This document shows positions 1-32,959 of a stretch of 64,000 nucleotides of DNA, one piece after another. A program made the translations under genes and the position numbers. The stretch is taken from NCBI RefSeq assembly GCF_988243305.1, contig NZ_OZ547136.1; one strand, given 5' to 3'. Position 1 is the first letter of the stretch. Every line of letters begins with the position of its first letter. The notes under the pieces were generated by a model. The model was not told the DNA's origin, made no database searches, and was given only the letters and a program-made list of their open reading frames with translations.

Positions 1-415
1 AGCGACAATCAATGCTCTGACACCAGTGCTGTGTGGATGGATAAGCTACTTCAGGCTGACGGAAGTCAGAGGAGTGCTGGAGGAGCTGGATGGCTGGATC
101 AAACGGAAACTGCGTTGCTTGTTGTAGCGGCAGTGGAAGAGACCGCTAACCCGGGCAAAGAACCTGCAAAGAGCAGGACTGAGTAAGGACAGGGCAATGA
201 TCTCTGCGTACAACAACCACGGGCCATGGTGGAACTCAGGGTCAAGCCATATGAATCAGGCGATAAAGAATACATGGTTCAGGAGGCAGGGTCTGATATC
301 ACTGCTGGAACAGTAGAGGCAGTTCCAGAGTTAACATGAACCGCCGTATGCGGAACCGCACGTACGGTGGTGTGAGAGGACGGCGGGAGTGATCCCGCCT
401 CCTACTCGATCAATT
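1..415 (+). mobile_element. Group II intron, 3' portion (end of intron-encoded protein ORF plus probable domains V-VI)
   Basis: Frame 2 reads ...CGWISYFRLTEVRGVLEELDGWIKRKLRCLL, then after a TAG RQWKRPLTRAKNL..., typical of a group II intron RT/maturase C-terminus; hairpin ccgtatgcgg/ccgcacgtacgg near 340-375 resembles domain V. Window starts inside the element; 3' boundary approximate. Confidence 0.55.
2..315 (+). pseudogene. Group II intron RT/maturase, C-terminal fragment interrupted by an in-frame TAG at 125-127
   Basis: Same reading frame continues across the TAG with maturase-like sequence (RQWKRP...); no database check. Confidence 0.5.
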
Positions 416-464
416 TTAAAACACCTCCTATGTAGGTGGTGATCGTTCATGTGGGGCTTTCTGA

Positions 465-640
465 CAGACTGCCTCGTCATTCCATTCGTATCGCCAGTAA
501 CTGGCGTTTGTATTGTGGCAGTTCTGGTATACGTTTCCCTGTGTATCTGCACTGGTTCAGCAAGGTTTGAAAAGGAGTATCCCTTGCAAATAACCGAAGC
601 ATTACTTTCAGAGCCGGAGCTGTTTTTGTTGCTGTGATCC
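465..640. repeat. Copy A of a roughly 180-bp conserved non-coding element (inverted relative to copy B at 7836-8030)
   Basis: By-eye alignment of 465-640 with the reverse complement of 7836-8030 gives roughly 75-80 percent identity, including shared blocks ggtttgaaaagga, gcaaataaccgaagc and ttcagagccgg. Confidence 0.5.
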
Positions 641-676
641 ATTTCAATTTTTTCGTGACAAATTATTTATAAATAT

Positions 677-1939
677 ATGATTATGTTTTTAAAAATGCAG
701 GCTGAAAGTATGAAGAATAAATACAAATTAAATGAGTTTTTGGATGTAAAACGCCTTCAGACCCTGCAGGACAACTTTTCAAAATCAATGATGATCGCGC
801 TCGTGGTTGTGGATGAGAATGGTATCCCGGTCACTAAGCCCAGCGGTTTTTCAGACTTCTGCATGCGTTCGCGTCTCAACCCGACACTGGCGCACCACTG
901 TTATGAAAGCGACAACGCTGGTGGCCGGGCCGCGATGCACGCTCGCAAACCGGTGGTTTATCGCTGCCACTGCGGTTTTGTCGAATTCGCTGTCCCAATC
1001 ATGATTAACGATCATTATCTCGGTGCTTTTATTTCCGGTCAGGTAAAAGTCGAAGAAGAGAAAGAACAGAGCATTTCCTATATTCTGAATAATAATGACG
1101 TCTGGAAAGATAATCCTTGGTTAATTAATTTGCACCAGAATACACGTCGCATGCCGTATGAGCGTTTTGAGTCTACTGCCTCGACGTTACTACACGTATC
1201 GTCTTATCTGGTCGAACAAGCGCACACCAATAATATCCAACGCGAACTTCGTAAAAAGGATCTTGCACTGGCTAATGAGTTAAGAAAACGTGTAGAGATA
1301 GAACGCTCACTACATGAAGCTGAATTTAAAGCGCTCTCTTATCAGATAAATCCGCACTTTTTATTTAACGTATTAAATACCATTGGCCGGTTAGCTTTTC
1401 TTGAAGATGCGCAGCGTACCGAAACAATGGTGCACGATTTCTCTGACATGATGCGCTATTTGTTACGTAAAAATAGTCACGGCCTGATTACTCTGCGTAA
1501 TGAAATAAATTACGTCAACAACTATATGTCGATCCAAAAAGTGCGTATGAGAGACCGTTTCGATTACCTGTGCGATATCCCGGAAAAATATCTGGATGTA
1601 GTCTGCCCGTTTTTGATCCTGCAACCGCTGGTGGAAAACTTCTTTAACTACGTAGTGGAGCCAAGGGATAGCAATAGTCATCTGCTGATCCGTGCCACGG
1701 ACGATGGCCTGAACGTGATTATTGAAGTCACTGACAATGGCGACGGCATCGCACCAGATACCATTAATCGCATTTTATCAGGCGACCAAAAATTGCAAAA
1801 AGGCAGTATTGGCATTAACAACATAAAAAATAGATTGAAGTTGTTATTTGGCGAGAGCTATGGCTTGGAAATAATGAGCCCTAACAAACCCAGGATGGGT
1901 ACAACCATTAAACTTCGGTTCCCAATGCAGGAAGCCTGA
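677..1939 (+). CDS. Cytoplasmic sensor histidine kinase with N-terminal PocR-type ligand-binding domain (LytS/YesM-type kinase core)
   Basis: 420 aa ORF; Cys/His-rich PocR-like N-terminus (CYESDNAGG...[14 protein letters not shown]), H-box NPHFLFN, C-terminal HATPase-like region; low GC. Confidence 0.7.
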
Positions 1940-1955
1940 TACAGGAAAAGGACAT

Positions 1956-3011
1956 ATGTTTACCATTGTTATCGTTGAAGATGAGCCCATCGAATTAGAA
2001 TCCCTGCGGCAGATTATCTCCCAGTGTGTGGAAAACGCTGCGATCCATGAAGCCTCAACCGGTAAAAAAGCGATTCACTTAATTGACCAACTGAGTCAAA
2101 TCGATATGATCTTAGTGGACATTAATATTCCGTTGCCGAACGGTAAACAGGTGATTGAATATCTGAAGAAAAAAAACAGCGATACTAAAATCATCGTAAT
2201 CACGGCCAATGATGACTTTGATATAGTACGCAGCATGTACAACCTTAAAGTGGATGATTATCTGCTCAAACCAGTGAAAAAATGTATCTTGACCGACACC
2301 ATCAAAAAAACCCTAGCATTCGACGAAGGAGAAAATGAAAAATCCCGCGCCCTAAAACAGAAAGTGTTCGCCATGATAGACGATTGCGATTACACCCAGT
2401 GGCACAACTTTATTTTTGACACGCTCAACGGTGCCTGTCCGGTGGATATGATAGAAGAGGATAAGCGCAAAGACGTGATCGATTTTCTGGAAATAGTTAG
2501 CCAGTATATGACCGCCAAAGGGGAAAAGTTAATGCCGACTAACCGTAAAGTCGCCGCGCTGATCAAAGACATCAACCAGTATGGCATGATGGAAAGCCGC
2601 TATTTCCGCATCATGATCAGCCTGCTGACCATTAGCGAAGAGCTGTTTGATTACGCATTAAAAGGCTATACAGGCAATATCGATTTTATCGAACGAGCGA
2701 AATTCCATATTGAGAAAAATATTCTCAGAAACTTGACGCTCGATGACGTGGCAGCAAAATCGTTTGTCAGTGCCTGCTATTTGAGCCGTACCTTTAAGAA
2801 AATTACCGGGTTCGGGTTTTCGAACTATATTGCCACGCGTAAAATTACTATCGCCAAATCGTTATTGCGGTTCAGTGACTTACAAGTAAATACCATTGCG
2901 CTGGAACTGGCATACCAGGATTCAAACTATTTTTGCCGCATCTTCAAAAAAGATACTGGCATGACCCCCTCTGATTATCGAAAAGTCGTGTCCCCGGGAA
3001 TTACACGGTGA
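1956..3011 (+). CDS. Response regulator with receiver domain and AraC-type HTH output (YesN-like)
   Basis: 351 aa; N-terminal receiver (IVEDEP...LVDINIP), C-terminal AraC HTH (YLSRTFKK...DSNYFCRIFKKDTGMTPSDYRK); start 17 nt after the kinase stop with RBS aaaagga. Confidence 0.75.
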   Translation: MFTIVIVEDEPIELESLRQIISQCVENAAIHEASTGKKAIHLIDQLSQIDMILVDINIPLPNGKQVIEYLKKKNSDTKIIVITANDDFDIVRSMYNLKVDDYLLKPVKKCILTDTIKKTLAFDEGENEKSRALKQKVFAMIDDCDYTQWHNFIFDTLNGACPVDMIEEDKRKDVIDFLEIVSQYMTAKGEKLMPTNRKVAALIKDINQYGMMESRYFRIMISLLTISEELFDYALKGYTGNIDFIERAKFHIEKNILRNLTLDDVAAKSFVSACYLSRTFKKITGFGFSNYIATRKITIAKSLLRFSDLQVNTIALELAYQDSNYFCRIFKKDTGMTPSDYRKVVSPGITR

Positions 3012-3139
3012 TGGCGTGATTTTGCATTGGCCCGATAATGAAAGCAAAATAGTCCAACACGCCCGCAAGATAGTTTACGCCCACTTGTCAGGTTCCTATC
3101 CTAAGATAGGAATAAACTTCCCAAACAAGTGGGCTCGCT

Positions 3140-4291
3140 TTGAACGATTACCTGTTTACCTCCGAATCCGTTGCCGAAGGGCATCCCGATAAAATGGCGG
3201 ACCAAATTTCTGATGCCATTTTGGATGCGATACTCCTACAGGACCCGTGGGGTAAGGTTGCCTGTGAATGCTTGGTGAAAACTGGTGCCACTATTGTTGC
3301 CGGAGAAATATCTACCCATGCCGCCGTGGATATTGAGAAGATTGTCCGCAACACCATAAAAGAGATTGGTTACGACCATTCGCGATTGGGGTTTGATGGC
3401 AATACCTGCTGTGTATTAAATATCCTTGGCAAACAGTCCGCCAATATTGCTGACGGCATTCGCGGCCACTCGATGGAAGAACTGGGGGCGGGCGATCAGG
3501 GCATCACCTTCGGTTACGCCTGTGATGAAACGTCGGAACTGATGCCCGCCACGCTGGTATACGCCCATCGTCTGATGGAGCGCCAGGCGCAGTTGCGTAA
3601 ATCCCAACGGTTACCATTTTTACTCCCTGATGCCAAAAGCCAGGTTACCCTGCGCTATCAGGATAATCGTGTTCATTCAGTAGATACCGTTGTGGTGTCT
3701 ACCCAACACAGCCCTGACGTTTCTCTGGACGCGCTACGGGAAGCGGTCATCGAAGAAATTGTTAAACCTGTGATGCCTTCGCACTGGCTCACGCCACAAA
3801 CCCGCTTTCTGGTGAACCCTGCAGGCAGTTTTGTGATTGGCGGGCCGGTGGGTGACTGCGGGCTAACGGGGCGTAAAATTATTGTTGATACCTATGGCGG
3901 CGCGGCTTGCCATGGCGGCGGCGCGTTTTCAGGCAAAGATCCGTCGAAAGTCGATCGTTCCGCCGCCTACGCTGCTCGCTATGTGGCGAAAAACATCGTC
4001 GCCGCTGGGCTTGCCTCACGCTGTGAAGTCCAGTTGGGATGGGCCATCGGCCTGCCCCGCCCTGTTTCCGTCAGGATTAACACCTTCGGTACACAAACAG
4101 TGTCATCTGAAGCGTTGCTGAGAGGCGTTAACAGCCATTTCGATCTTAGCGTGTTCGGCATCATTACTACGCTTGATCTGCTGGTCCCCCGCTATCGTAA
4201 AACAGCCTGCTATGGTCACTTTGGTCGCGACAGCTTTCCGTGGGAAGTTACGGACAAAGCGGCGCTATTATACGAAGACGTTGGACGTTAA
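3140..4291 (+). CDS. S-adenosylmethionine synthetase (methionine adenosyltransferase) paralogue
   Basis: 383 aa; MetK hallmarks [63 protein letters not shown]. Apparent TTG start with no obvious RBS; exact start uncertain. Confidence 0.8.
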
Positions 4292-4335
4292 GCCGACGAC
4301 GCGCAGCACAGTTGAATTTATTACAGGAGAAATTT

Positions 4336-4881
4336 ATGTCTGGGAAAAGTTTAGGCTTAATCGAAACCGTCGGGATGTCTGCGGCGGTAGAAGCCGCCGA
4401 TGCCGCAATGAAATCCGCTAACGTTAGTCTGGTAGGCTATGAATTGACGAAAGGCGGCGGGATGGTGACCGTGAAGCTGGAAGGGGAAGTGGGCGCAATT
4501 AACGCGGCGGTAGCGGCAGCCATCAGCGCGGCAAGCCGGGTTGGCGAGGTGTATGCCCATAAGGTGATCGCCCGCACCGCGCAGCATATCGAGCAGATTA
4601 TTCACTCTAAAGTGACCGCCGGCGTCGCAGAACCTCAACCTGAAGTGCCTGCTGCACAACCGACACTGCAGGCTGAAAACGCGCCTTCACAGACATTCCC
4701 GGTGGTTAACCTTGATACGTCAATCAGCGCATCCTGTATGGATGTCACTGATGAAACGCTGAAGTCCATGGAGCAGCATCAACCGGTTAAACCCTCAATA
4801 GAAAACACTAAACCTACAAAATCTGATGTACCGCAGGAGGCAGCAAAGAAAGGTCCTCGTTCCAGCGGCAAGAAAAAATAA
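4336..4881 (+). CDS. Bacterial microcompartment shell protein (BMC-H, PduA/EutM-like) with about 90-aa low-complexity C-terminal tail
   Basis: N-terminal 90 aa MSGKSLGLIETVGMSAAVEAADAAMKSANVSLVGYE... align with PduA/EutM; RBS aggag upstream of ATG at 4336; tail rich in P/A/Q/E/K. Confidence 0.75.
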   Translation: MSGKSLGLIETVGMSAAVEAADAAMKSANVSLVGYELTKGGGMVTVKLEGEVGAINAAVAAAISAASRVGEVYAHKVIARTAQHIEQIIHSKVTAGVAEPQPEVPAAQPTLQAENAPSQTFPVVNLDTSISASCMDVTDETLKSMEQHQPVKPSIENTKPTKSDVPQEAAKKGPRSSGKKK

Positions 4882-4899
4882 GTAAATTGCTATGACGCT

Positions 4900-4935
4900 G
4901 CCGCGATAACAATTTCTTTATCGCGGCATTTTTTT
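4900..4935 (+). terminator. Rho-independent terminator after the BMC-H gene
   Basis: Hairpin gccgcgataa / ttatcgcggc followed by a T-run. Confidence 0.6.
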
Positions 4936-5237
4936 GCTTAACAGATAAAGTAAAAAACCATCTGCATAGCGGGCGGCTTTGACACGGCCCCCTGAAAGGG
5001 GGCTTAAACACTACCCTTTCAGGCCCAGTTGTATTTGTCTTTCTTCTTCCTCTTTTGCTACCTTGTTCGAAAAGGGACGCTCGTCCTCGCCCACTGTTCT
5101 GTATGCATACCTGCTCCCACTGCAAATTATATTGCTGGGCTATGTTAACAAGCCTATATGCTATTAAAAACTCATGAGCAACATATTGATAATACCATTC
5201 TTATATATCCACGCTTAAGTAAATAACTCTTACATAA

Positions 5238-5435
5238 CTAACTATTCCATCTCACTTCTTCCTTAGCGAGTTTTCGGTATGCAATAGGAGCTATACCAAA
5301 GCGGCGAGTAAATGCCCTTGTAAATGTCTGCTGAAAATCAAACTGATATTTAAAAGTGATAGTCGTGACCGATTCAGTAGTAGAACGTAGTTCTTCTGCT
5401 GCATTTATTAATATACCTACCAATAGAAATACCAA
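5238..5435 (-). pseudogene. MarA/TetD-like AraC-family regulator, C-terminal fragment
   Basis: 65 aa ORF holds only the second HTH (KYQFDFQQTFTRAFTRRFGIAPIAYRK), similar to the TetD C-terminus; no intact N-terminal half in frame. Confidence 0.5.
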
Positions 5436-5553
5436 TGATATGTTTAAACAATTTCTGTAAATACCATTTTGAATATCCAGCTTTTTTGCCTCAATATTTA
5501 TTGAGAGTTCTACCTCAAGATTTTCATCAATTCATTTAGCAAGCTCATTGATA

Positions 5554-6225
5554 TCAGCGCTGTTTTTTATAGTAGCGTTCATTTTTATCGATGCCTGTGA
5601 AGGTTGATTGGGTCAACTCCAGTACTATGCAACCCTCTCTGAAAAGGGATTTATTATCAGGTTGCAGAATGCAACTTCGCACCACCCCCGTAAACAAAGA
5701 AAAAAGCAGGAACGCCAGAGCCTCACTACGAATTTCCGAACATATTTCTCTATATAACTTACCTTTTTCGAAAATATAACATAGTAATTTCACAAAATTA
5801 TTGACATCCACCATTTTTTGTAAGAAATTTATTCTTATATCATCCGGACATTCTTCACAAAAAAACACAATATAAATTACATTCCGTAAGTGTACATTAT
5901 ATTGTAATTTAATCAGGCTACGTGATAAGCAACGATACATCGCTTTAACCGGTTCAGAAACTCTCCCATTTTTGATGGCTGTAAGCTCATCAAATAATGA
6001 TAGTGGTACCCGCTCGATGACTTGTCGCAGAAGATCTTTTTTTTCGTTGAAATACCAGTATATGGCCCCCCGAGTACAACCTGCGCGCACCGCAATCATC
6101 TCCAGTGTCGTCTTCGAAAAGCCCGTCTCACAAAAGCAGAACTCTGCCGCATCCAGGATTTGTTTGCGGGTTTCTTCCGCTGCAAATTTTGTGTGCCGCA
6201 CCACTGTTGAAATCTCCATTGACAT
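5554..6225 (-). CDS. TetR/AcrR-family transcriptional repressor
   Basis: 223 aa; N-terminal TetR HTH (TRKQILDAAEFCFCETGFSKTTLEMIAVRAGCTRGAIYWYFNEK). Confidence 0.7.
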   Translation of the reverse strand: MSMEISTVVRHTKFAAEETRKQILDAAEFCFCETGFSKTTLEMIAVRAGCTRGAIYWYFNEKKDLLRQVIERVPLSLFDELTAIKNGRVSEPVKAMYRCLSRSLIKLQYNVHLRNVIYIVFFCEECPDDIRINFLQKMVDVNNFVKLLCYIFEKGKLYREICSEIRSEALAFLLFSLFTGVVRSCILQPDNKSLFREGCIVLELTQSTFTGIDKNERYYKKQR

Positions 6226-6324
6226 CTTATTTCAGGAAATATCTCTGGGGCATTTAGTACCAACCCAACAGCCATTTACTCAGGCGCAGTATGTTGTTTA
6301 CTGCACCTGAATATTTACTCATGC

Positions 6325-7389
6325 TTATGATTGCTCAGCTTCAGTCTTATCCGATGATTTCTTATTTCTGCGGCTGAAGAACCCGGCAATTAACATATAG
6401 AAGAGAGGAATATAAAAGATTGCCAGTATCGTAGCAGTGATCATCCCTCCAACCACACCAGTACCGATGGCATGTTTACTTCCGGAACTTGCTCCAGTCG
6501 AGACAGCCAGTGGGATAACCCCCATTACAAATGCCAGCGAAGTCATAATTATCGGTCTTAACCTCACTCTCGCCGCTTCAACAGCAGCCTCTTTAATGCT
6601 TAGTCCTTCTTTCTCATGCAATTCACGAGCAAACTCCACGATAAGTATGGCATTTTTCGCAGACAGCCCTATTGTTGTTAATAAACCGACCTGGAAAAAG
6701 ACATCGTTACCAAGGCCGCGCAACAAAGTAGCACAGACAGCCCCCAGGACACCAAGCGGAACAACCAGCATGACCGAGAAAGGAATGCTCCAGCTTTCAT
6801 ACAGTGCAGCCAGACACAGAAAGACGATCAACAGTGAAAGTGCATATAGTGCAGGAGCCTGAGAACCTGAAAGTCGTTCCTCAAAAGACAAACCTGTCCA
6901 GGAAATATGGAAACCTTCGGGAAGTCTTGCCGCAATATCCTCAATTGCTTTCATTGCATCCCCGGAACTGTATCCTGGTGCCGGTTCCCCCAGGATTTCG
7001 ACAGCAGAGATACCATTATATTGCTCCAGTTTTGGTGAGCCATAAATCCATTTGCCTGTTGCAAAAGAGGCAAAGGAAACCATGTCGCCATCACTGTTAC
7101 GGACATACCATTTATCAAAATCCTGCGGTGATATACGTGAGCCGGGTTCGCCCTAAATATAGACTTTTTTCACCCGTCCACGATCGTTAAAATCATTTAC
7201 ATACATCGAACCCCAGGCTGCTGGCATTATGTTGTCGACGTCGCTCATGCTCAGTTTAAGCGCCTGAACTTTCTCGTCATCAATCAGAATCTGGAACTGA
7301 GGCTCATCGTTCATGCCGTTAGGACGAACCATGTTTAACGCTGGACTTTTCGCCGCTTCAGCAAGAAGCTGATTTCGGGCCTGGATCAT
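6325..7389 (-). pseudogene. RND efflux transporter (AcrB/AcrF-like), C-terminal remnant, frameshifted and 5'-truncated by IS2
   Basis: ORFs 6325-7083 and 7153-7389 match the C-terminal third of AcrB-type pumps (VRPNGM...[27 protein letters not shown]...[13 protein letters not shown]) in two frames; upstream part absent, IS2 end at 7482. Confidence 0.7.
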
Positions 7390-7481
7390 TTTTTCATGGC
7401 CAGCTCCGCTACGATCCTCGAGGAACAGGTCAAACCCTGTAGCATTCCCCAGTTCTGATACGGCAGGGGGCGTTTTAAAAC

Positions 7482-7838
7482 TAGACTAGCCCCCAGAATC
7501 TCCAGACAACCAATATCACTTAAATAAGTGATAGTCTTAATACTAGTTTTTAGACTAGTCATTGGAGAACAGATGATTGATGTCTTAGGACCGGAGAAAC
7601 GCAGACGGCGTACTACACAGGAAAAGATCGCTATTGTTCAGCAGAGCTTTGAGCCGGGAATGACGGTCTCCCTTGTTGCCCGGCAACACGGTGTGGCAGC
7701 CAGCCAGTTATTTCTCTGGCGCAAGCAATACCAGGAGGGAAGTCTTACTGCTGTGGCCGCAGGAGAACAGGTCGTTCCTGCCTCTGAACTTGCTGCTGCC
7801 ATGAAGCAGATTAAAGAACTCCAGCGCCTGCTGAACAA
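7482..7838 (+). mobile_element. IS2 left end, truncated about 360 bp into the element
   Basis: tagactagcccccagaatctccagacaaccaatatcacttaaataagtgatagtc matches the IS2 left inverted repeat region; orfA (InsC) sequence diverges from IS2 after ...KELQRLL. Confidence 0.75.
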
Positions 7839-7863
7839 AACGCCGGATGTCTCCCGGCTCTGA
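7573..7863 (+). pseudogene. IS2 orfA (InsC) truncated, with a foreign 9-codon tail
   Basis: [56 protein letters not shown]... is IS2 InsC-like; the C-terminal residues do not continue as IS2. Confidence 0.7.
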
Positions 7864-8030
7864 AATTAAGGCTTCGGTTATTTGCACGAAATGTTCCTTT
7901 TCAAACCCTGTTGAATTTTGTTAAGCCGGTGCAGACACACGGAAAACGCACATCAACACCGGACGGTACGATACAAACACCAGTGACTGGCGGGACGAAG
8001 GGAATGACGAATCAGTCAGGAAATGATGAC
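7836..8030. repeat. Copy B of the roughly 180-bp conserved non-coding element (inverted relative to copy A)
   Basis: See copy A; lies between the IS2 truncation point and the small ORF/alpA. Confidence 0.5.
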
Positions 8031-10721: not shown

Positions 10722-11157
10722 TACCATGATAATGGTGGCAATGAAGATTAGACAAGGAAGGGAGTAAGTATAATCGGGTGAGGGTCAGAGTAATGGAATG
10801 AGTAAAGATAGAGAGTAAGTAAAAACAGAGTGAATAAAGACAAAGTGAATATAATTATAGTAATAAACCTAAATTAAAAATACTTGCGTATAATGGAAAG
10901 AAATAAGAATTAAGAATAGCGTATGAGTCGTAGTCATGACCTGGCTACAAAAAGTCATTCCATCTGGCTGTCATTCAGACACACTCCCCAAACATTCGAC
11001 TACAAAGTACTAACAGAAAATTAACTGATGTATTATTCTTCTGCCCTGAATGAACATCCGGAAGTATAATCTCCCCTAGCTTCACGTTCACCGGGAAAAA
11101 CGAAGCTATTTACTTTGATGATCGCTGACGAAAAACCGAACAGGCAGTTGCATAATC

Positions 11158-12252
11158 ATGGACAACAGAGAAAAAGAGATACTCAGGATCCTGCGTCACA
11201 ACCCACTGATCCAGCAGAATGAAATTGCTGAGATTTTACAAATCAGTCGGTCGCGTGTTGCTGCACACATTATGGATCTGATGCGCAAAGGTGCGATTAA
11301 AGGGAAAGGCTACATCCTGACAGAACAGGAATACTGTGTTGTTCTTGGGGCGATTAACATGGATATCCGTGGGGTGGCGGATATCCATTATCCACAGAAA
11401 TCCTCCAGTCCGGGCAGTATTTACTGCTCTGCCGGAGGTGTCGGACGCAACATCGCCCATAATCTCGCCCTTCTGGGCCGCAATGTGCATCTGATATCTG
11501 CTGTAGGCAATGATTTTTATGGCGAAACATTACTGGAGCAGACCCGCCTGGCCGGCGTTAATGTCACCAATTGTATTCGACTGAACGGACAAAATACTTC
11601 AACTTATGTCTCCATCGCCGACCTACAGGCAGAAACAGTGATGGCGATTAATGATACCCATATTCTGCAACAACTGACGCCGCAGTTGCTGGACGCCTCA
11701 CGTATGTTAATCCGTCACGCTGGCGTGGTGCTGGCTGACTGTAATCTGACACCTGCCGCCCTTGAATGGATCTTTACGGTCGCTGACGGCATTCCCGTTT
11801 TTATTGATACAGTGTCGAAATTTAAGGCTGTTAATGTAAAAAACTGGCTTCCGCATATCCATACCCTGAAACCCACACAAAAAGAACTGGAGATATTATG
11901 GGGTTCCCCTGTCAACAATGAGACCGATCTACTCACCGCAGTGAACGCACTACATCAGCAGGGTGTGCAACAGATTTTTGTCTGGATGGGAGATGAATCC
12001 GTTTTCTGTAGCCAAAGAGAGGGAGAACAATTTCTGCTCACACCGCCCGTTCATGCCGTTGTGGACAGCTTTGGTGCAGATGATGGCTTTATGGCAGGTC
12101 TGCTTTACAGTTTTCTGGAAGGAAGTAGTTTCCAGGAAAGTGCTCACTTTGCGATGGCATGTGCAGCACTGTCACGTGCCAGCACCAGCATCAATAACCC
12201 AACACTTTCCGTTAATAACGCGCAATATCTGTTAAAAACATCCCGGGGGTAA
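11158..12252 (+). CDS. YeiI-like protein: N-terminal winged-helix HTH fused to a PfkB-family sugar kinase domain
   Basis: 364 aa; N-terminal HTH (ILRILRHNPLIQQNEIAEILQISRSRVAAHI), PfkB motifs (GGVGRNIAHNLALLG; DSFGADDGFMAG). Confidence 0.65.
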   Translation: MDNREKEILRILRHNPLIQQNEIAEILQISRSRVAAHIMDLMRKGAIKGKGYILTEQEYCVVLGAINMDIRGVADIHYPQKSSSPGSIYCSAGGVGRNIAHNLALLGRNVHLISAVGNDFYGETLLEQTRLAGVNVTNCIRLNGQNTSTYVSIADLQAETVMAINDTHILQQLTPQLLDASRMLIRHAGVVLADCNLTPAALEWIFTVADGIPVFIDTVSKFKAVNVKNWLPHIHTLKPTQKELEILWGSPVNNETDLLTAVNALHQQGVQQIFVWMGDESVFCSQREGEQFLLTPPVHAVVDSFGADDGFMAGLLYSFLEGSSFQESAHFAMACAALSRASTSINNPTLSVNNAQYLLKTSRG

Positions 12253-12270
12253 CACCCGGGATTGTATTTT

Positions 12271-13521
12271 TTATGCCAGCCCAATGAAAAAACCAGCGAT
12301 AGTCGCACTCATCAGGTTTGACAGGGTGGCCGCCGCCAGTGCACGCATGCCCAGTTGTGCAATTTCAGGTGCACGCTGAGGTGATATGGCTGAAAAGGCA
12401 CCCACCACCACACCAATGGAGCCAAAGTTGGCAAAACCACACAGTGCAAAAGAAATAATTGCGGTGGTTTTCACATCAAGCGTACTGCCTGGCTGTAAAT
12501 AGGGTGAAAGATTGAGATAAGCAACAAATTCGTTAATTGCCAGCTTCTGACCAATCAGACTTCCTGCCAGTGAAGCATCCGCCCAGTCAACGCCCATGAT
12601 CCACGCAAGGGGAGCCAAAATCCAGCCGAAAATGCCCTCAAGGGTAATATTACCATAACCAAACCAGCCTCCGATACCACCGATTATACCGTTAATCAGA
12701 GCAATAATAGCAACAAAGGTCATCACTACCGTTGCAACTCCGACAGCGATTTTCAACCCGGTCATCGCCCCGCTGGCCACTGCTTCAATAACACTTTTGG
12801 GAGGAGTATCAGTGAAAGAAAGATTTTCAAAAGTGACTTTTGATTCTTCTGTGGCCGGACTCAGAATACGGGCAAAAAGGATCCCCCCCGGGATCGCCAT
12901 CAACGACGCCGCCAGCAAATAGTCAATCGGAACCCCCATCCCGGCATAGCCGATCATCATTGAACCGGCAATCGAAGCCATCCCACTGCAGATGACAGTA
13001 AATAATTCATTACGATTCAGACGATTAATAAACGGTTTTACAATTGCCGGGATCTCGTTTTGCCCCAGGAAAATTGTCGTTACTGCCACAAATGACTCAA
13101 CTTTACTTATGTTCAGAGCTTTCTGAAAAATCCCCCCCAGAATACGGATAAGCCCCCCCATCACTCTGATGTAGTACAGCAGACTGATAAGCGCTGTAAC
13201 AAAAATGATGGCAGGAAGTACACGGAAGGCGAAGATAAAACCCGCCCCATCGAACAGTACGTCCATTTTGTCCCCTACCAGAGAGCCAAAAATAAAGGCA
13301 CTGCCCGCATCACTGTAAGACATAATTTTATGTACGCCCAGTGCAGCCTGTTCAACCAGCCATTTCCCCGGGGGGAAATAGAGCATGATCCCACCAATCG
13401 CGATTTGAAGAACCAGTGCAGCTCCTGTGGTACGTAAACTGATACGTTTTTTATTCACTGATAGTAGAAATGCAATTATCAGCAATACTGCCATTCCCAC
13501 TATACTTCTCATGATGTCCAT
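12271..13521 (-). CDS. psuT: NupC-family nucleoside transporter (PsuT/YeiM-like)
   Basis: 416 aa polytopic membrane protein with NupC-like sequence; position next to psuG/psuK. Confidence 0.65.
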   Translation of the reverse strand: MDIMRSIVGMAVLLIIAFLLSVNKKRISLRTTGAALVLQIAIGGIMLYFPPGKWLVEQAALGVHKIMSYSDAGSAFIFGSLVGDKMDVLFDGAGFIFAFRVLPAIIFVTALISLLYYIRVMGGLIRILGGIFQKALNISKVESFVAVTTIFLGQNEIPAIVKPFINRLNRNELFTVICSGMASIAGSMMIGYAGMGVPIDYLLAASLMAIPGGILFARILSPATEESKVTFENLSFTDTPPKSVIEAVASGAMTGLKIAVGVATVVMTFVAIIALINGIIGGIGGWFGYGNITLEGIFGWILAPLAWIMGVDWADASLAGSLIGQKLAINEFVAYLNLSPYLQPGSTLDVKTTAIISFALCGFANFGSIGVVVGAFSAISPQRAPEIAQLGMRALAAATLSNLMSATIAGFFIGLA

Positions 13522-13604
13522 AATGCTCTCCCCTTATACCTGAACCAGACACGGAATCTGGTTCAGGTAATTTCGGGCGACCTCACACTGCCCGTTCATT
13601 TATA

Positions 13605-14540
13605 TCAGACAATTTGTTGATATTCTTTTGCTATCTCACAGGCCAGAACTGCGTTGTTGAATACCAGCTGAATATTTGATTTCAGACTGTCACCACCGGT
13701 TAATTCTGCCACCCGTGCCAGCAGGAACGGTGTGCTTTCTTTACCGGTAATGCCCTGCACTTCCGCTTCTTTTACGGCCTGGTCAATTGCTGCATTAATT
13801 TTCTCTTCCGCCATGGCGTAAGCTTCCGGAATCGGATTGGCAACAACCAGACCACCGTTCAGGCCGGTTTGCCATTTCACTGCCATCGCGCGGGCAATCT
13901 CTTTTGCACTGTCCAGACGTATACTGACCTCAAACGGACTGGTGCGGCAAAAAAATGCCGGCAATGATCTTGTCTGATAGCCAATTAAAGGTACACCAAA
14001 TGTTTCTAAATATTCCGTGGTTAACCCTAAATCGAGAATGGATTTCGCGCCTGCACAAACCACGGTGACATTAGTATGTGCCAGTTCCTGTAGGTCGGCT
14101 GAAATATCAAAAGTGTGTTCTGCACCGCGATGAACGCCGCCAATTCCTCCTGTGGCAAAAACTTTAATTCCGGCAAGAGCAGCAATAATCATGGTTGAAG
14201 CTACCGTTGTTGCACCATGTTTTCCTTCAGCAATAACGAAAGGTAAATCCCGGCGACTGACTTTGGTAACGTTATGTCCTTCGCGACCCAGTAATTCAAT
14301 CTCATCTTTACTTAACCCGACTTTCATTACACCGCCAATAACGGCAATGGTGGCTGGTACTGCTCCGTGTTTACGTATAGTTTCTTCGACTTCAATAGCC
14401 GTCTGAGCATTCTGAGGAAAAGGCATACCATGTGAGATAATTGTTGACTCGAGAGCAACAACAGGTTTTTTACTGTTAATGGCATCCTGTACTTCCGGTG
14501 AAATTTGCAGTAATTCAGAAGAAATGGTTATTTCAGACAT
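13605..14540 (-). CDS. psuG: Pseudouridine-5'-phosphate glycosidase (PsuG/YeiN, IndA-like)
   Basis: 311 aa; close to E. coli YeiN by memory (…VVALESTIISHGMPFPQN…GGIGGVHRG…). Confidence 0.7.
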   Translation of the reverse strand: MSEITISSELLQISPEVQDAINSKKPVVALESTIISHGMPFPQNAQTAIEVEETIRKHGAVPATIAVIGGVMKVGLSKDEIELLGREGHNVTKVSRRDLPFVIAEGKHGATTVASTMIIAALAGIKVFATGGIGGVHRGAEHTFDISADLQELAHTNVTVVCAGAKSILDLGLTTEYLETFGVPLIGYQTRSLPAFFCRTSPFEVSIRLDSAKEIARAMAVKWQTGLNGGLVVANPIPEAYAMAEEKINAAIDQAVKEAEVQGITGKESTPFLLARVAELTGGDSLKSNIQLVFNNAVLACEIAKEYQQIV

Positions 14541-15468
14541 TCTGTTTCTCCACTAAGCTTTTAACGTTAGCAACAGATAATTCAGGATTATTGGTATACT
14601 CACTGGCCAGCGCCATTGATGAACACCCCTGTGCAAATCGAATGGAATCAATAAATGGCATATTATCAACCCAGCAGGAAGCCAGCCCTGCCATCATGGC
14701 ATCCCCTGCCCCCGTAACGTTCACCACCTGTGTTTTTACTGGCGGCGACCAGCCGCTGGCTCCGTACAGTTCGCTGTAATAAACTCCATCCCCCCCCATG
14801 CTGAGCACAAGGCGATTCAGACCATGTGTATGGAACCATACCGCCACTTTTTCAGCATCATTCCGATCTGAAAGCGAAATACCACTGAGTGTTTCTGCTT
14901 CAAGCCGGTTGGGCTTGAGAGTATGAATTTGTGCTAAATGTTCACGAATTTTGACACACTTCCATGCAGATACCGGGTCAACAAATACCGGAACCTTACC
15001 TGCATTATTCAGTAGCCAGACAAGTGTTGACTCACTGATATTACAGTCTGCAACAATAACCTTCGCTCCCTGAATAAAATCAATATGCTGTGATAAAAAC
15101 TCAGCTGAAATATGTTCACTAATCGTCATGTCATTTATTGCCACCAACATTTCACCGGTTTTATCGAGAAGTGATAAATAACTTGAGGTATTTTCTCCAT
15201 TAACAATCAGACATTTATCAACATTAACGCCGGACTGAGTCGTTTGTGCTAATAATGATTGCCCGTAGAAATCATCTCCCACAGCTGACATCAGCCATGA
15301 GTTTTTACCCAGCAGAGCAAGATTATGTGCAATATTACGCCCCACACCTCCGGGCGTGAATTTAATCTTCCCCGGGTTAGAATCAGCATAATTTAAGGAG
15401 GCATACGAATATCCGGCTATATCTATATTGGCAGAGCCAATTGTGATGATGTATTCCTTATCACACAT
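14533..15468 (-). CDS. psuK: Pseudouridine kinase (PsuK/YeiC, PfkB family)
   Basis: 311 aa from MCDKEY with RBS aggag; PfkB motifs GGVGRNIAHNLALLG and GAGDAMMAG; overlaps psuG start by 8 nt. Confidence 0.7.
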   Translation of the reverse strand: MCDKEYIITIGSANIDIAGYSYASLNYADSNPGKIKFTPGGVGRNIAHNLALLGKNSWLMSAVGDDFYGQSLLAQTTQSGVNVDKCLIVNGENTSSYLSLLDKTGEMLVAINDMTISEHISAEFLSQHIDFIQGAKVIVADCNISESTLVWLLNNAGKVPVFVDPVSAWKCVKIREHLAQIHTLKPNRLEAETLSGISLSDRNDAEKVAVWFHTHGLNRLVLSMGGDGVYYSELYGASGWSPPVKTQVVNVTGAGDAMMAGLASCWVDNMPFIDSIRFAQGCSSMALASEYTNNPELSVANVKSLVEKQNV

Positions 15469-16003
15469 GGCACATCTCCTGACATTTAAAAACACAAAAA
15501 TAATAAATCTGTATTTCTATTCGACCACGCAGATAGAGTTGAACATATATTCAAAATCAAACATGTGTTCACTTTATGCCTGTTTTTAGAAATGTAAATA
15601 CCAGTCCAGAATCAAAAAGTGAAAAATGAAAACAGGATCACAATTTTTATCGTTAATCCATGTTGTCCTTATCCGGTTTTATGGCGTTGCCCTGTTTCAT
15701 CAGGTTATTTGCATGAACGGAATAAATACCGGAGATGACAGGAAACACCATAAGATATTCAGGATGTTACGATGAATTTCATGAGGATCGCTAAAAATGA
15801 GCCTGTTTAATAATTTTATGCAAACACCTTATACCAGGGCTTCCCTTCGGAGATATCAATGACCCCGACAGCGCTCTCACTGCCCTGGTTGCTGGTTTCC
15901 GATATCCTCTTAACTTGCAGGCTCATCCCGCATTTCACTCATGGTGAATAAGGCACATAATGGTCTGGAGTCAATTCTGGCTTACGATTTGTAAATATAA
16001 TAA

Positions 16004-27597: not shown

Positions 27598-28923
27598 CTG
27601 ATGAATCCCCTAATGATTTTTATCAAAATCATTAAGTTAAGGTAGATACACATCTTGTCATATGATCAAATGGTTTCGCCAAAAATCAATAATCAGACAA
27701 CAAGATGTGCGAACTCGATATTTTACACGACTCTCTTTACCAATTCTGCCCCGAATTACACTTAAAACGACTCAACAGCTTAACGTTGGCTTGCCACGCA
27801 TTACTTGACTGTAAAACTCTCACTCTTACCGAACTTGGCCGTAACCTGCCAACCAAAGCGAGAACAAAACATAACATCAAACGAATCGACCGATTGTTAG
27901 GTAATCGTCACCTCCACAAAGAGCGACTCGCTGTATACCGTTGGCATGCTAGCTTTATCTGTTCGGGCAATACGATGCCCATTGTACTTGTTGACTGGTC
28001 TGATATTCGTGAGCAAAAACGACTTATGGTATTGCGAGCTTCAGTCGCACTACACGGTCGTTCTGTTACTCTTTATGAGAAAGCGTTCCCGCTTTCAGAG
28101 CAATGTTCAAAGAAAGCTCATGACCAATTTCTAGCCGACCTTGCGAGCATTCTACCGAGTAACACCACACCGCTCATTGTCAGTGATGCTGGCTTTAAAG
28201 TGCCATGGTATAAATCCGTTGAGAAGCTGGGTTGGTACTGGTTAAGTCGAGTAAGAGGAAAAGTACAATATGCAGACCTAGGAGCGGAAAACTGGAAACC
28301 TATCAGCAACTTACATGATATGTCATCTAGTCACTCAAAGACTTTAGGCTATAAGAGGCTGACTAAAAGCAATCCAATCTCATGCCAAATTCTATTGTAT
28401 AAATCTCGCTCTAAAGGCCGAAAAAATCAGCGCTCGACACGGACTCATTGTCACCACCCGTCACCTAAAATCTACTCAGCGTCGGCAAAGGAGCCATGGG
28501 TTCTAGCAACTAACTTACCTGTTGAAATTCGAACACCCAAACAACTTGTTAATATCTATTCGAAGCGAATGCAGATTGAAGAAACCTTCCGAGACTTGAA
28601 AAGTCCTGCCTACGGACTAGGCCTACGCCATAGCCGAACGAGCAGCTCAGAGCGTTTTGATATCATGCTGCTAATCGCCCTGATGCTTCAACTAACATGT
28701 TGGCTTGCGGGCGTTCATGCTCAGAAACAAGGTTGGGACAAGCACTTCCAGGCTAACACAGTCAGAAATCGAAACGTACTCTCAACAGTTCGCTTAGGCA
28801 TGGAAGTTTTGCGGCATTCTGGCTACACAATAACAAGGGAAGACTTACTCGTGGCTGCAACCCTACTAGCTCAAAATTTATTCACACATGGTTACGCTTT
28901 GGGGAAATTATGAGGGGATCTCC

Positions 28924-28926
<3 letters not shown>
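27598..28926 (+). mobile_element. IS10-left
   Basis: IS10 outside end and 402-aa transposase; the last few bases of the inside end differ from the canonical terminus. Confidence 0.85.
27705..28913 (+). CDS. IS10 transposase (IS4 family)
   Basis: 402 aa MCELDILHDSLYQFCPELHLKRLNSLTLACHALLDC... Confidence 0.9.
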   Translation: MCELDILHDSLYQFCPELHLKRLNSLTLACHALLDCKTLTLTELGRNLPTKARTKHNIKRIDRLLGNRHLHKERLAVYRWHASFICSGNTMPIVLVDWSDIREQKRLMVLRASVALHGRSVTLYEKAFPLSEQCSKKAHDQFLADLASILPSNTTPLIVSDAGFKVPWYKSVEKLGWYWLSRVRGKVQYADLGAENWKPISNLHDMSSSHSKTLGYKRLTKSNPISCQILLYKSRSKGRKNQRSTRTHCHHPSPKIYSASAKEPWVLATNLPVEIRTPKQLVNIYSKRMQIEETFRDLKSPAYGLGLRHSRTSSSERFDIMLLIALMLQLTCWLAGVHAQKQGWDKHFQANTVRNRNVLSTVRLGMEVLRHSGYTITREDLLVAATLLAQNLFTHGYALGKL

Positions 28927-29926
<1,000 letters not shown>

Positions 29927-29941
29927 CTAATTTTTGTTGAC

Positions 29942-29991
29942 ACTCTATCATTGATAGAGTTATTTTACCACTCCCTATCAGTGATAGAGAA
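29942..29991. promoter_or_regulatory. tet operators O1/O2 in the divergent tetR-tetA promoter region
   Basis: Palindromes actctatcattgatagagt and tccctatcagtgatagaga between tetR and tetA. Confidence 0.9.
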
Positions 29992-29998
29992 AAGTGAA

Positions 29999-31204
29999 AT
30001 GAATAGTTCGACAAAGATCGCATTGGTAATTACGTTACTCGATGCCATGGGGATTGGCCTTATCATGCCAGTCTTGCCAACGTTATTACGTGAATTTATT
30101 GCTTCGGAAGATATCGCTAACCACTTTGGCGTATTGCTTGCACTTTATGCGTTAATGCAGGTTATCTTTGCTCCTTGGCTTGGAAAAATGTCTGACCGAT
30201 TTGGTCGGCGCCCAGTGCTGTTGTTGTCATTAATAGGCGCATCGCTGGATTACTTATTGCTGGCTTTTTCAAGTGCGCTTTGGATGCTGTATTTAGGCCG
30301 TTTGCTTTCAGGGATCACAGGAGCTACTGGGGCTGTCGCGGCATCGGTCATTGCCGATACCACCTCAGCTTCTCAACGCGTGAAGTGGTTCGGTTGGTTA
30401 GGGGCAAGTTTTGGGCTTGGTTTAATAGCGGGGCCTATTATTGGTGGTTTTGCAGGAGAGATTTCACCGCATAGTCCCTTTTTTATCGCTGCGTTGCTAA
30501 ATATTGTCGCTTTCCTTGTGGTTATGTTTTGGTTCCGTGAAACCAAAAATACACGTGATAATACAGATACCGAAGTAGGGGTTGAGACGCAATCGAATTC
30601 GGTATACATCACTTTATTTAAAACGATGCCCATTTTGTTGATTATTTATTTTTCAGCGCAATTGATAGGCCAAATTCCCGCAACGGTGTGGGTGCTATTT
30701 ACCGAAAATCGTTTTGGATGGAATAGCATGATGGTTGGCTTTTCATTAGCGGGTCTTGGTCTTTTACACTCAGTATTCCAAGCCTTTGTGGCAGGAAGAA
30801 TAGCCACTAAATGGGGCGAAAAAACGGCAGTACTGCTCGGATTTATTGCAGATAGTAGTGCATTTGCCTTTTTAGCGTTTATATCTGAAGGTTGGTTAGT
30901 TTTCCCTGTTTTAATTTTATTGGCTGGTGGTGGGATCGCTTTACCTGCATTACAGGGAGTGATGTCTATCCAAACAAAGAGTCATCAGCAAGGTGCTTTA
31001 CAGGGATTATTGGTGAGCCTTACCAATGCAACCGGTGTTATTGGCCCATTACTGTTTGCTGTTATTTATAATCATTCACTACCAATTTGGGATGGCTGGA
31101 TTTGGATTATTGGTTTAGCGTTTTACTGTATTATTATCCTGCTATCGATGACCTTCATGTTAACCCCTCAAGCTCAGGGGAGTAAACAGGAGACAAGTGC
31201 TTAG
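29999..31204 (+). CDS. tetA: Tetracycline efflux MFS transporter TetA (class B)
   Basis: 401 aa from MNSSTKIALVITLLDAMGIGLIMPVLPTLLREF... Confidence 0.95.
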   Translation: MNSSTKIALVITLLDAMGIGLIMPVLPTLLREFIASEDIANHFGVLLALYALMQVIFAPWLGKMSDRFGRRPVLLLSLIGASLDYLLLAFSSALWMLYLGRLLSGITGATGAVAASVIADTTSASQRVKWFGWLGASFGLGLIAGPIIGGFAGEISPHSPFFIAALLNIVAFLVVMFWFRETKNTRDNTDTEVGVETQSNSVYITLFKTMPILLIIYFSAQLIGQIPATVWVLFTENRFGWNSMMVGFSLAGLGLLHSVFQAFVAGRIATKWGEKTAVLLGFIADSSAFAFLAFISEGWLVFPVLILLAGGGIALPALQGVMSIQTKSHQQGALQGLLVSLTNATGVIGPLLFAVIYNHSLPIWDGWIWIIGLAFYCIIILLSMTFMLTPQAQGSKQETSA

Positions 31205-31316
31205 TTATTTCGTCACCAAATGATGTTATTCCGCGAAATATAATGACCCTCTTGATAACCCAAGAGGGCATTTTTTACGATAAAGAAGATTTAGCTTCAA
31301 ATAAAACCTATCTATT

Positions 31317-31910
31317 TTATTTATCTTTCAAGCTCAATAAAAAGCCGCGGTAAATAGCAATAAATTGGCCTTTTTTATCGGCAAGCTCTTTTAGGTTTTT
31401 CGCATGTATTGCGATATGCATAAACCAGCCATTGAGTAAGTTTTTAAGCACATCATCATCATAAGCTTTAAGTTGGTTCTCTTGGATCAATTTGCTGACA
31501 ATGGCGTTTACCTTACCAGTAATGTATTCAAGGCTAATTTTTTCAAGTTCATTCCAACCAATGATAGGCATCACTTCTTGGATAGGGATAAGGTTTTTAT
31601 TATTATCAATAATATAATCAAGATAATGTTCAAATATACTTTCTAAGGCAGACCAACCATTTGTTAAATCAGTTTTTGTTGTGATGTAGGCATCAATCAT
31701 AATTAATTGCTGCTTATAACAGGCACTGAGTAATTGTTTTTTATTTTTAAAGTGATGATAAAAGGCACCTTTGGTCACCAACGCTTTTCCCGAGATCTCA
31801 TCTATTGAAACAGCTTGATAGCCTTTTTCAACAAACAATATTCGTGCTGAGTTAACCAGTGATTGATAGGTACTCTTAAAATTTTCTTGTTGATGATTTT
31901 TATTTTCCAT
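31317..31910 (-). CDS. tetC: Tn10 TetC (TetR-like transcriptional regulator)
   Basis: 197 aa from MENKNHQQ; conserved position between tetA and tetD. Confidence 0.8.
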   Translation of the reverse strand: MENKNHQQENFKSTYQSLVNSARILFVEKGYQAVSIDEISGKALVTKGAFYHHFKNKKQLLSACYKQQLIMIDAYITTKTDLTNGWSALESIFEHYLDYIIDNNKNLIPIQEVMPIIGWNELEKISLEYITGKVNAIVSKLIQENQLKAYDDDVLKNLLNGWFMHIAIHAKNLKELADKKGQFIAIYRGFLLSLKDK

Positions 31911-31997
31911 GATAGATTTAAAATAACATACCGTCAGTATGTTTATGGTATCATGATGATGTGGTCGTGACAATCTTAAGAACATTTAGGTTATTTT

Positions 31998-32414
31998 ATG
32001 TATATTGAACAGCATTCTCGCTATCAAAATAAAGCTAATAACATCCAATTAAGATATGATGATAAGCAGTTTCATACAACGGTTATCAAAGATGTTCTAT
32101 TATGGATTGAACATAATTTAGATCAGTCTTTACTGCTTGATGATGTGGCGAATAAAGCGGGTTATACCAAGTGGTATTTTCAGCGGCTGTTCAAAAAAGT
32201 AACAGGGGTCACACTGGCTAGCTATATTCGTGCTCGTCGTTTGACGAAAGCGGCTGTTGAGTTGAGGTTGACGAAAAAAACTATCCTTGAGATCGCATTA
32301 AAATATCAATTTGATTCCCAACAATCTTTTACACGTCGATTTAAGTACATTTTTAAGGTTACACCAAGTTATTATCGGCGTAATAAATTATGGGAATTGG
32401 AGGCAATGCACTGA
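31998..32414 (+). CDS. tetD: Tn10 TetD (MarA/SoxS-like AraC-family regulator)
   Basis: 138 aa; two AraC HTH units; stop codon lies in the IS10-right inside end as in Tn10. Confidence 0.85.
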   Translation: MYIEQHSRYQNKANNIQLRYDDKQFHTTVIKDVLLWIEHNLDQSLLLDDVANKAGYTKWYFQRLFKKVTGVTLASYIRARRLTKAAVELRLTKKTILEIALKYQFDSQQSFTRRFKYIFKVTPSYYRRNKLWELEAMH

Positions 32415-32632
32415 GAGATCCCCTCATAATTTCCCCAAAGCGTAACCATGTGTGAATAAATTTTGAGCTAGTAGGGTTGCAGCCACGAGTAAGTCTTCCC
32501 TTGTTATTGTGTAGCCAGAATGCCGCAAAACTTCCATGCCTAAGCGAACTGTTGAGAGTACGTTTCGATTTCTGACTGTGAACCGCCCCGGGAATCCTGG
32601 AGACTAAACTTCCTGAGAAAGAGGTAAACAGG

Positions 32633-32959
32633 ATGACTAAAAATACTCGTTTTTCCCCCGAAGTCCGTCAACGGGCAGTCCGTATGGTTCTGGAAAGTCA
32701 GAGCGAATATGACTCACAATGGGCGACAATTTGTTCCATTGCTCCAAAGATTGGCTGTACGCCGGAGACTCTGCGTGTCTGGGTTCGCCAGCATGAGCGG
32801 GATACCGGGGGCGGTGATGGAGGGCTCACCACCGCTGAACGTCAGCGTCTGAAAGAGCTGGAACGTGAAAATCGTGAACTGCGCCGCAGTAACGATATCC
32901 TTCGCCAGGCTTCCGCTTATTTTGCGAAGGCGGAGTTCGACCGCCTCTGGAAAAAATGA
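32633..32959 (+). CDS. IS629-like OrfA (IS3-family transposase N-terminal protein)
   Basis: [60 protein letters not shown]... Confidence 0.8.

Follow-up and report, generated by a model that had tools for sequence, protein, structure and literature searches.

A PocR sensor kinase, an AraC-type response regulator, a MetK paralogue and a shell protein very probably form one end of the grp microcompartment locus of extraintestinal E. coli

Why would a lone gene for a bacterial microcompartment (BMC) shell protein stand beside a second gene for methionine adenosyltransferase? The question is raised by a DNA stretch of 64,000 nt (RefSeq assembly GCF_988243305.1, contig NZ_OZ547136.1; the whole stretch is called the window hereafter), near the start of which four genes form a cassette. 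An earlier note, made from the sequence alone, had described four co-directional genes with short gaps and a closing terminator, and this description held. The four co-directional open reading frames (ORFs) occupy 677-1939, 1956-3011, 3140-4291 (TTG start) and 4336-4881 (RefSeq start; in its longest form, the fourth ORF opens at 4240), they are separated by 16, 128 and 44 bp, and a hairpin with a run of seven T follows. The domain calls for all four proteins likewise passed Pfam profile searches, and the metK model TIGR01034 was also above its cut-off. In RefSeq, the gene names are grpP for the propanediol utilization sensor histidine kinase, grpQ for the response regulator transcription factor, grpR for the methionine adenosyltransferase and grpS for the shell hexameric protein. 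The features of the cassette are:

677..1939, plus strand: grpP, PocR-domain sensor histidine kinase with PocR, LytS-type His_kinase and HATPase_c domains (Pfam; RefSeq name)
1956..3011, plus strand: grpQ, response regulator that carries an AraC-type DNA-binding domain (Pfam; same accession as in strain CFT073)
3140..4291, plus strand: grpR, methionine adenosyltransferase, a MetK paralogue (TIGR01034, 588 bits)
4336..4881, plus strand: grpS, BMC-H shell protein with a BMC domain at about residues 1-92 and an 89-residue tail (Pfam BMC)
4899..4938, plus strand: intrinsic terminator that ends grpRS, with an 11-bp stem containing six G-C pairs, an 8-nt loop and then TTTTTTT (hairpin and T7 at 4899-4928)

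All four genes are intact, and the cassette is very probably the grpP-grpQ-grpR-grpS end of the grp (glycyl-radical propanediol, GRM3-type) microcompartment locus of extraintestinal E. coli; the label GRM3-type spans GRM3 and GRM3b here. When the cassette DNA (window 600-5000) was compared by megablast with 5,426 complete E. coli genomes, the sample used for the genome counts below, it was found in 538 of them, in 535 at an identity of at least 99% and in many at 100%. The grp locus itself is already known: it is named in RefSeq, classed as GRM3 and partly characterised, both genetically and biochemically.

The shell gene had appeared to be an orphan, and the cassette possibly the remainder of a degraded microcompartment locus. 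Indeed, grpS is the only BMC gene in the window, and debris of mobile elements (the remnant of a group II intron, an IS fragment and a pseudogene for an RND pump) lies beside the cassette, as would be expected if a lone shell gene of a degraded or satellite locus had remained next to unrelated genes. However, window 1-700 is 100% identical to DNA of NZ_CP029973 that starts 1.45 kb after the grpO stop codon, and in NZ_CP029973 the 15 genes grpA-grpO are located directly upstream of the cassette on the same strand, as they are in the uropathogenic E. coli (UPEC) strain CFT073. Thus, the lone shell gene is an artefact of the window edge, because the first base of the window sits about 1.45 kb past grpO. 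The upstream block of NZ_CP029973 encodes core enzymes (alcohol dehydrogenase GrpA, phosphotransacylase GrpB, aldehyde dehydrogenase GrpJ and also a propionate kinase), the glycyl-radical diol dehydratase GrpM, the radical-SAM activase GrpN and a permease; in NZ_CP029973 as in CFT073, grpM and grpN, the genes for the glycyl-radical enzyme (PF02901 + PF01228) and the radical-SAM activase expected of such a locus, are found 4-7 kb upstream of grpP, outside the window. Four shell genes in addition to grpS belong to grpA-grpO, namely grpH, grpI, grpK and the gene for the vertex protein, grpE, so that both the BMC-H/T (PF00936) and the vertex BMC-P (PF03319) proteins required of such a locus are encoded.

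A satellite BMC locus was defined as one with an insufficient shell complement and contiguous shell genes, apart from the main locus, and shell genes that are at most 20 kb from one another are counted as a single locus (Axen 2014, PMC4207490). The distance between grpK and grpS is 11 kb, and grpS thus belongs to the same locus as the other four shell genes and is neither a satellite nor an orphan. The complete grpA-grpO block (coverage at least 80%) is present in 536 genomes, compared with 538 for the cassette, and the full 15-gene block was found upstream in every annotated genome inspected; moreover, none of the four cassette genes is broken, and for two of their products the accession is the same in CFT073. 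Degradation is therefore refuted for the annotated genomes, and we give virtually no credence to it otherwise. The case has some value for calibration, as an ordinary locus end looked orphaned once the window had been cut 1.45 kb away from the main operon. A separate observation concerns grpH, the first hexameric shell gene, which RefSeq marks as frameshifted in CFT073 (NC_004431.1, L008 21812-22095), the strain used for characterisation of the organelle; this may be a sequencing error of the old assembly.

The pairing of a metK paralogue with a BMC-H gene could still have been a chance juxtaposition, which a survey of gene neighbourhoods in other genera argues against. The P-Q-R-S module was present in the same order in all five neighbourhoods retrieved (Atlantibacter, Pectobacterium, Vibrio, Raoultella and Rahnella), with a BMC-H protein of 157-192 aa and beside genes for a glycyl-radical enzyme, its activase, shell proteins and core enzymes. 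The metabolosome core families of Pfam (aldehyde dehydrogenase, phosphotransacylase and alcohol dehydrogenase) are present in these other genera too. Because five of five genera keep both the gene order and the glycyl-radical enzyme neighbourhood, the pair is a conserved module.

A difference in base composition had been taken as a sign of a composite origin of the cassette. The contrast itself is real, with a GC content of 0.428 for grpPQ and 0.532 for grpRS in the window. The values in other genera are:

Atlantibacter: grpPQ 0.49, grpRS 0.60
Pectobacterium: grpPQ 0.41, grpRS 0.51
Vibrio: grpPQ 0.35, grpRS 0.42
Raoultella: grpPQ 0.48, grpRS 0.61

The contrast is thus an old property of the genes and not a trace of recent assembly, because it is present in every other genus measured (four of four). 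In addition, grpRS match the body of the E. coli locus (0.513), and it is grpPQ, not grpRS, that are the outliers in E. coli. A composite origin deduced from GC content was therefore rejected.

The locus has been described before. The ancillary genes of GRM3 loci were reported to include a SAM synthetase (SAM, S-adenosylmethionine), a two-component pair, PocR domains, a flavoprotein, a peptidase and a DUF336 protein, with the rationale that the SAM synthetase provides the cofactor for glycyl-radical chemistry and activation (Axen 2014, PMC4207490). The statement that no locus combining a methionine adenosyltransferase with a shell protein had been described was wrong, because Axen 2014 and the grp literature precede it; the expectation that PocR sensors accompany microcompartment loci agrees with the PocR-domain regulators noted in GRM3 (Axen 2014). 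All of these ancillary genes are annotated in the E. coli locus: grpR, grpP/grpQ, the flavoprotein gene grpD, the peptidase gene grpL (DJ-1/PfpI) and the DUF336 gene grpF (HbpS-like). They are shared with other GRM3 loci, for example that of Rhodopseudomonas palustris BisB18, as are the glycyl-radical diol dehydratase, its activase and the metabolosome core (Axen 2014; Zarzycki 2017; Ferlez 2019). In contrast, the Fe-S proteins GrpU, PduS and PduT, which many GRM3 loci have, are not annotated in the E. coli locus.

The closest described system is the grp locus of CFT073 (grpA-grpS, Lundin 2020; GrpP and GrpQ are c4545 and c4546, Li 2025), which has the same genes, order and flanks, including the intron remnant between grpO and grpP. 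As summarised in a 2026 review (PMC13210347), Lundin 2020 reported 21 co-directional genes and five shell proteins, and the number of genes agrees with grpA-grpO plus two intron ORFs plus grpP-grpS. For GrpQ and GrpR, CFT073 shares its protein accessions with genomes whose match to the window is 100%, whereas those of GrpP and GrpS are not the same; because the accessions differ, the latter two are allelic variants. The islands differ downstream, where the window carries Tn10 and adjoins a type II secretion/sslE region. The pdu locus of Salmonella (with a PocR regulator, PduA/PduJ and a B12-dependent diol dehydratase) is alike in substrate, in the logic of aldehyde sequestration, in the PocR domain and in the BMC-H tiles. 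However, in grp PocR is fused to a histidine kinase, a separate response regulator bears the AraC domain, and the cofactor support is SAM synthesis by GrpR, in pdu the synthesis and recycling of cobalamin. With the locus named, classed and partly characterised, the discovery value of the cassette is small. The modest additions are a candidate GrpQ operator at four grp promoters and in six genera, a putative separate grpRS promoter, a module that is inverted in E. coli and a conserved tail of GrpS, and these could guide the study of regulation and SAM supply of a uropathogen-associated organelle.

The suggestion that the MetK paralogue is intact was corroborated. GrpR scores 588 bits with TIGR01034 (NCBIfam), far above the cut-off of 309.4, contains all three S-AdoMet synthetase domains of Pfam (E-values 1.8e-41 to 3.7e-64) and aligns without gaps to E. 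coli MetK (PDB 7LL3) over 379 positions, of which 63.6% are identical. All 14 catalytic or binding residues compared are identical in GrpR and 7LL3; in E. coli MetK numbering, they are H14, D16, K17, E42, E55, Q98, D118, K165, D238, R244, K245, K265, K269 and D271. GrpR is thus apparently catalytically intact. Its closest relatives (70-96% identity) are from Enterobacter, Atlantibacter, Leclercia, Silvania, Buttiauxella, Pectobacterium, Brenneria, Rahnella, Raoultella, Klebsiella and Vibrio, and they are associated with the locus wherever the neighbourhood was retrieved (five of five).

GrpP contains a PocR (Pfam E-value 2.2e-44), a His_kinase (5.8e-27) and a HATPase_c domain (4.1e-07), and GrpQ contains a Response_reg (4.1e-20) and an HTH_18 domain (6.9e-18), with the acidic pocket VEDEP and an Asp within ILVDINIP in the receiver (REC). 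PocR is thus fused to a kinase core and a REC-AraC regulator is encoded adjacently, the composition of a PocR two-component system. GrpP is most likely a cytoplasmic, soluble sensor, because no segment is fit for a membrane helix (the highest 19-residue Kyte-Doolittle mean is 1.32). Its annotated length of 420 aa exceeds the 407-413 aa of the homologues in five genera, and the true start may be Met7 (695) or Met12 (710), in which case sigma-70-like hexamers at 655-684 would fall upstream of the gene. In a sigma-70 consensus scan, promoter-like sites were no more common than in shuffled sequence (10 versus 7.6).

For CFT073, it was shown that GrpP autophosphorylates, that the phosphate passes to GrpQ and that grpP and grpQ are co-transcribed (Li 2025, PMC11724981). 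Furthermore, the grpR transcript was lower in a grpP/grpQ deletion mutant under anaerobic conditions with 1,2-propanediol, and GrpQ binds to fimS and answers to D-serine (PMC11724981). As cited in the same paper, Lundin 2020 found that GrpP and GrpQ are both needed for the anaerobic induction of the grp genes by 1,2-propanediol in CFT073. Control of the SAM synthetase gene by the sensor pair, as proposed in the earlier note, agrees with the drop of the grpR transcript as well as with a conserved operator-like repeat that precedes grpR. This repeat is located in the 128-bp grpQ-grpR spacer, which is conserved over six genera in the alignment and contains the following features:

3019..3050, plus strand: inverted repeat ATTTTGC...GCAAAAT just 3' of the grpQ stop codon, seen by eye in the alignment
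3044..3070, plus strand: candidate GrpQ operator 70 bp ahead of the start of grpR, formed by the tandem direct repeat GCAAAATAGTCC-N9-GCAAGA (period 21 bp)
3102..3107, plus strand: TAAGAT, a -10-like hexamer for a putative grpRS promoter that would depend on an activator; its T, A, A and T do not vary among six genera

The repeat, in the form GCAARAWAGTCC-N9-GCAARA, is found before grpA, grpB, grpH and grpR (further copies at 3820-3846, 5079-5105 and 9565-9591 of L001, the E. coli locus sequence in which window position 1 is 19402). Exact matches to GCAARA-N15-GCAARA in the 44-kb E. coli locus number two, before grpH and grpR, versus 0.04 expected; the fuller pattern with up to three mismatches gives four matches, versus 0.15 expected, and these precede grpA, grpB, grpH and grpR, all on the coding strand and in the four largest intergenic gaps. 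In the other genera (loci L002-L005 and L007), each 21-kb locus has exactly two copies of the repeat. The first is located in the Q-R spacer, and the second precedes the grpH homologue in Atlantibacter, Pectobacterium, Raoultella and Rahnella and lies in the gap between the alcohol dehydrogenase and phosphotransacylase genes in Vibrio. A looser pattern gave one off-target match, inside a glycosyl hydrolase gene of Rahnella.

For activators of the AraC family, tandem repeats separated by two helical turns are typical. The 21-bp period is of this kind, and the invariant TA..AT lies about 30 bp beyond the tandem repeat, where a -10 hexamer would be placed. We infer that the repeat is a candidate GrpQ operator and that grpRS would form a separate, GrpQ-dependent transcription unit with its own promoter. 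In the literature found, the repeat had not been described, and it is thus a candidate for a new element. The inverted repeat at 3019-3050 has longer and G+C-richer stems in Raoultella and Pectobacterium, and it may be a terminator hairpin of grpPQ or an extra half-site; RNAalifold on the alignment gave no consensus pairs for a conserved RNA hairpin after grpQ. Neither a SAM riboswitch nor another RNA element before grpR was found in Rfam at E <= 1 in window 1-5300, the only match being to a group II intron.

The conserved operator-like site ahead of grpR and the GrpPQ-dependent expression of grpR (PMC11724981) would also be expected if the cassette were a stand-alone ligand-sensing unit that chiefly regulates cellular SAM synthesis, independently of a microcompartment. 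However, the same repeat precedes grpA, grpB and grpH, and the module adjoins the glycyl-radical enzyme locus in all five other genera sampled, with no P-Q-R module lacking such a locus among the five neighbourhoods retrieved. GrpR also departs from the housekeeping MetK, to which it is 63.6% identical, and all of its near relatives are associated with the locus. We therefore regard a stand-alone function as highly unlikely.

As the end of the grp locus, the cassette would contribute to the organelle as follows. The PocR domain of GrpP would respond to 1,2-propanediol under anaerobiosis, and GrpP phosphorylates GrpQ. The AraC-type activator GrpQ would then switch on the grp promoters, probably through the tandem repeat with the 21-bp period before grpA, grpB, grpH and grpR. 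GrpR would convert ATP and methionine to SAM for the radical-SAM activase GrpN, which in turn would install the glycyl radical on the diol dehydratase GrpM, and GrpS would be the fifth shell protein. The probable role of GrpR is thus a local supply of SAM. In this scheme, GrpP's transfer of phosphate to GrpQ, the co-transcription of grpPQ, the GrpPQ-dependent grp induction and the role of GrpQ at fimS with D-serine are backed by the literature; the identity of the genes, their context, the conservation of the module, the intact active site of GrpR and the operator-like repeats are backed by the present analysis.

Several points weigh against this reading. The presence of grpA-grpO in the source genome is deduced from the identity of the window to other genomes and from the co-occurrence (536 versus 538 genomes). 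The search of the literature, which lacked the primary description of grp (Lundin 2020), yielded no experiment on grpR or grpS singly. The pattern of the repeat was set after two E. coli copies had been seen, which leaves only the other copies and the other genera as independent evidence. Finally, the footprint of GrpQ on fimS (PMC11724981) has only a CAAAAA core in common with the proposed repeat; this resemblance is too weak to use and was discarded.

The binding to fimS also bears on an alternative role of the pair in E. coli, where GrpP and GrpQ might mainly be a virulence regulator that senses D-serine and turns type 1 fimbriae on, with grpR and grpS being incidental. The D-serine-dependent activation and the footprint on fimS speak for this possibility, as do the invasion defect of the mutant and the enrichment in UPEC (PMC11724981). 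However, this role adds to the control of grp and does not replace it, as the same study confirmed the control of grpR by 1,2-propanediol and anaerobiosis. In addition, the module is kept in plant- and environment-associated genera, in which a uropathogenic role is unlikely. We consider it doubtful, though possible, that virulence regulation is the main function, and the reading of the cassette as the regulatory and SAM-supplying end of grp is preferred.

In GrpS, the shell domain is followed by a long tail:

4612-4878, plus strand: C-terminal tail of GrpS (residues 93-181), Pro/Ala/Ser/Lys-rich, with a basic tip

GrpS contains a single BMC domain (PF00936, 1.7e-22), and its best matches in the PDB are BMC-H hexamers, with coverage of residues 1 to about 105 only. 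K26, N29 and R80, the residues used for tiling, do not vary among five genera; they correspond to the hexamer-edge residues K26, N29 and R79 of PduA. In the tail, the length and the basic C-terminal tip are conserved, while the sequence is variable; no domain was detected in it and no match was found among solved structures. An AlphaFold2 model of GrpS based on a five-sequence alignment had a pLDDT below 50 over most of residues 72-181, which is weak evidence of disorder because the alignment is shallow. A BMC-H domain with a long C-terminal extension is also found in EutK and PduK, and residues 5-110 of GrpS have a sub-threshold NCBIfam match to EutK. EutK has a helix-turn-helix domain. For PduK, a tetracysteine motif was described (Ferlez 2019). 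In contrast, neither a domain nor a predicted fold was detected in the tail of GrpS, and its one Cys is poorly conserved.

The adjacency of grpR and grpS is strict in six genera, which raises the possibility that their products act as a pair. The two genes would then form their own GrpQ-dependent unit via the repeat at 3044-3070, and a disordered, basic-tipped GrpS tail of conserved length would hold the MetK paralogue (or its substrates) at the shell, where SAM would be produced for the activase. The adjacency is compatible with such tethering without demonstrating it, and we regard this idea as improbable. If it were true, a cofactor-synthesis enzyme would be tethered to a microcompartment shell protein.

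The orientation of the module differs between E. coli and other genera. In Atlantibacter, Pectobacterium, Raoultella and Rahnella it is convergent with the operon that ends in activase and transporter genes, whereas it is co-directional in E. coli. Homology to the Atlantibacter module starts at window position 619, right after the left arm of an inverted repeat:

556..617, no strand assigned: left arm of the inverted repeat, 62 nt, 85% complementary to 7854-7915
7854..7915, no strand assigned: right arm, partner of 556-617

The likeness of the arms extends over about 170 nt, and they enclose 7.2 kb with grpPQRS, a TetR gene, the RND pump pseudogene and the IS fragment. Members of the repeat family are scattered over E. 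coli islands and occur in 3,492 of the 5,426 genomes. Judged from these positions, the module was plausibly inverted in E. coli through the two arms.

The spacer between grpO and grpP contains a degenerate group II intron, which, like the two arms, may have to do with the rearrangement. It consists of fragments of a reverse transcriptase (RT)/maturase ORF and of domain V/VI; at this position, CFT073 is annotated with a 'maturase' and an RT-domain protein. The parts within the window are:

1..127, plus strand: 3' end of the RT/maturase ORF fragment (annotated at 19007-19528 of L001 as "reverse transcriptase domain-containing protein")
339..410, plus strand: group II intron domain V/VI, the 3' end of the intron RNA (Rfam RF00029, 50.4 bits versus a gathering threshold of 40, E 5e-08)

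Downstream of the cassette, window 5238-7863 holds decayed cargo, which is on the opposite strand: a C-terminal fragment of an AraC-family gene, an intact TetR/AcrR gene (5554-6225) and the RND efflux permease pseudogene with an internal stop codon. The cargo ends in a truncated transposase fragment on the plus strand, which resembles InsC of IS2. Farther along the same island, at about 11150-15500, genes for a sugar kinase, a NupC-family nucleoside transporter, a pseudouridine-5'-phosphate glycosidase and a pseudouridine kinase follow; the transporter gene is frameshifted in NZ_CP029973 and intact in NZ_AP022049. The chromosomal junction of the island differs between strains, because in NZ_AP022049 the island adjoins cadC and not the gsp-beta/sslE region. 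No tRNA gene was found in the 64-kb window.

A Tn10-like element occupies about 27600-35050, and it is exactly there that the window diverges from other genomes with the grp island. It is bounded by a pair of IS10 copies in inverted orientation (RNA-OUT at 27643-27712, minus strand, and at 34938-35007, plus strand), carries tetR(B) (29294-29920, minus strand) and tetA(B) (29951-31204), and holds an insertion of the IS3 family with an ALIL pseudoknot at 32914-33030. The remainder of the window, from about 36000 to 64000, comprises the CP4-like end of the island (antirestriction, YeeU/CbtA toxin-antitoxin and DUF4942 genes) and then the type II secretion gsp-beta/sslE region and the C0719 sRNA (55481-55702).

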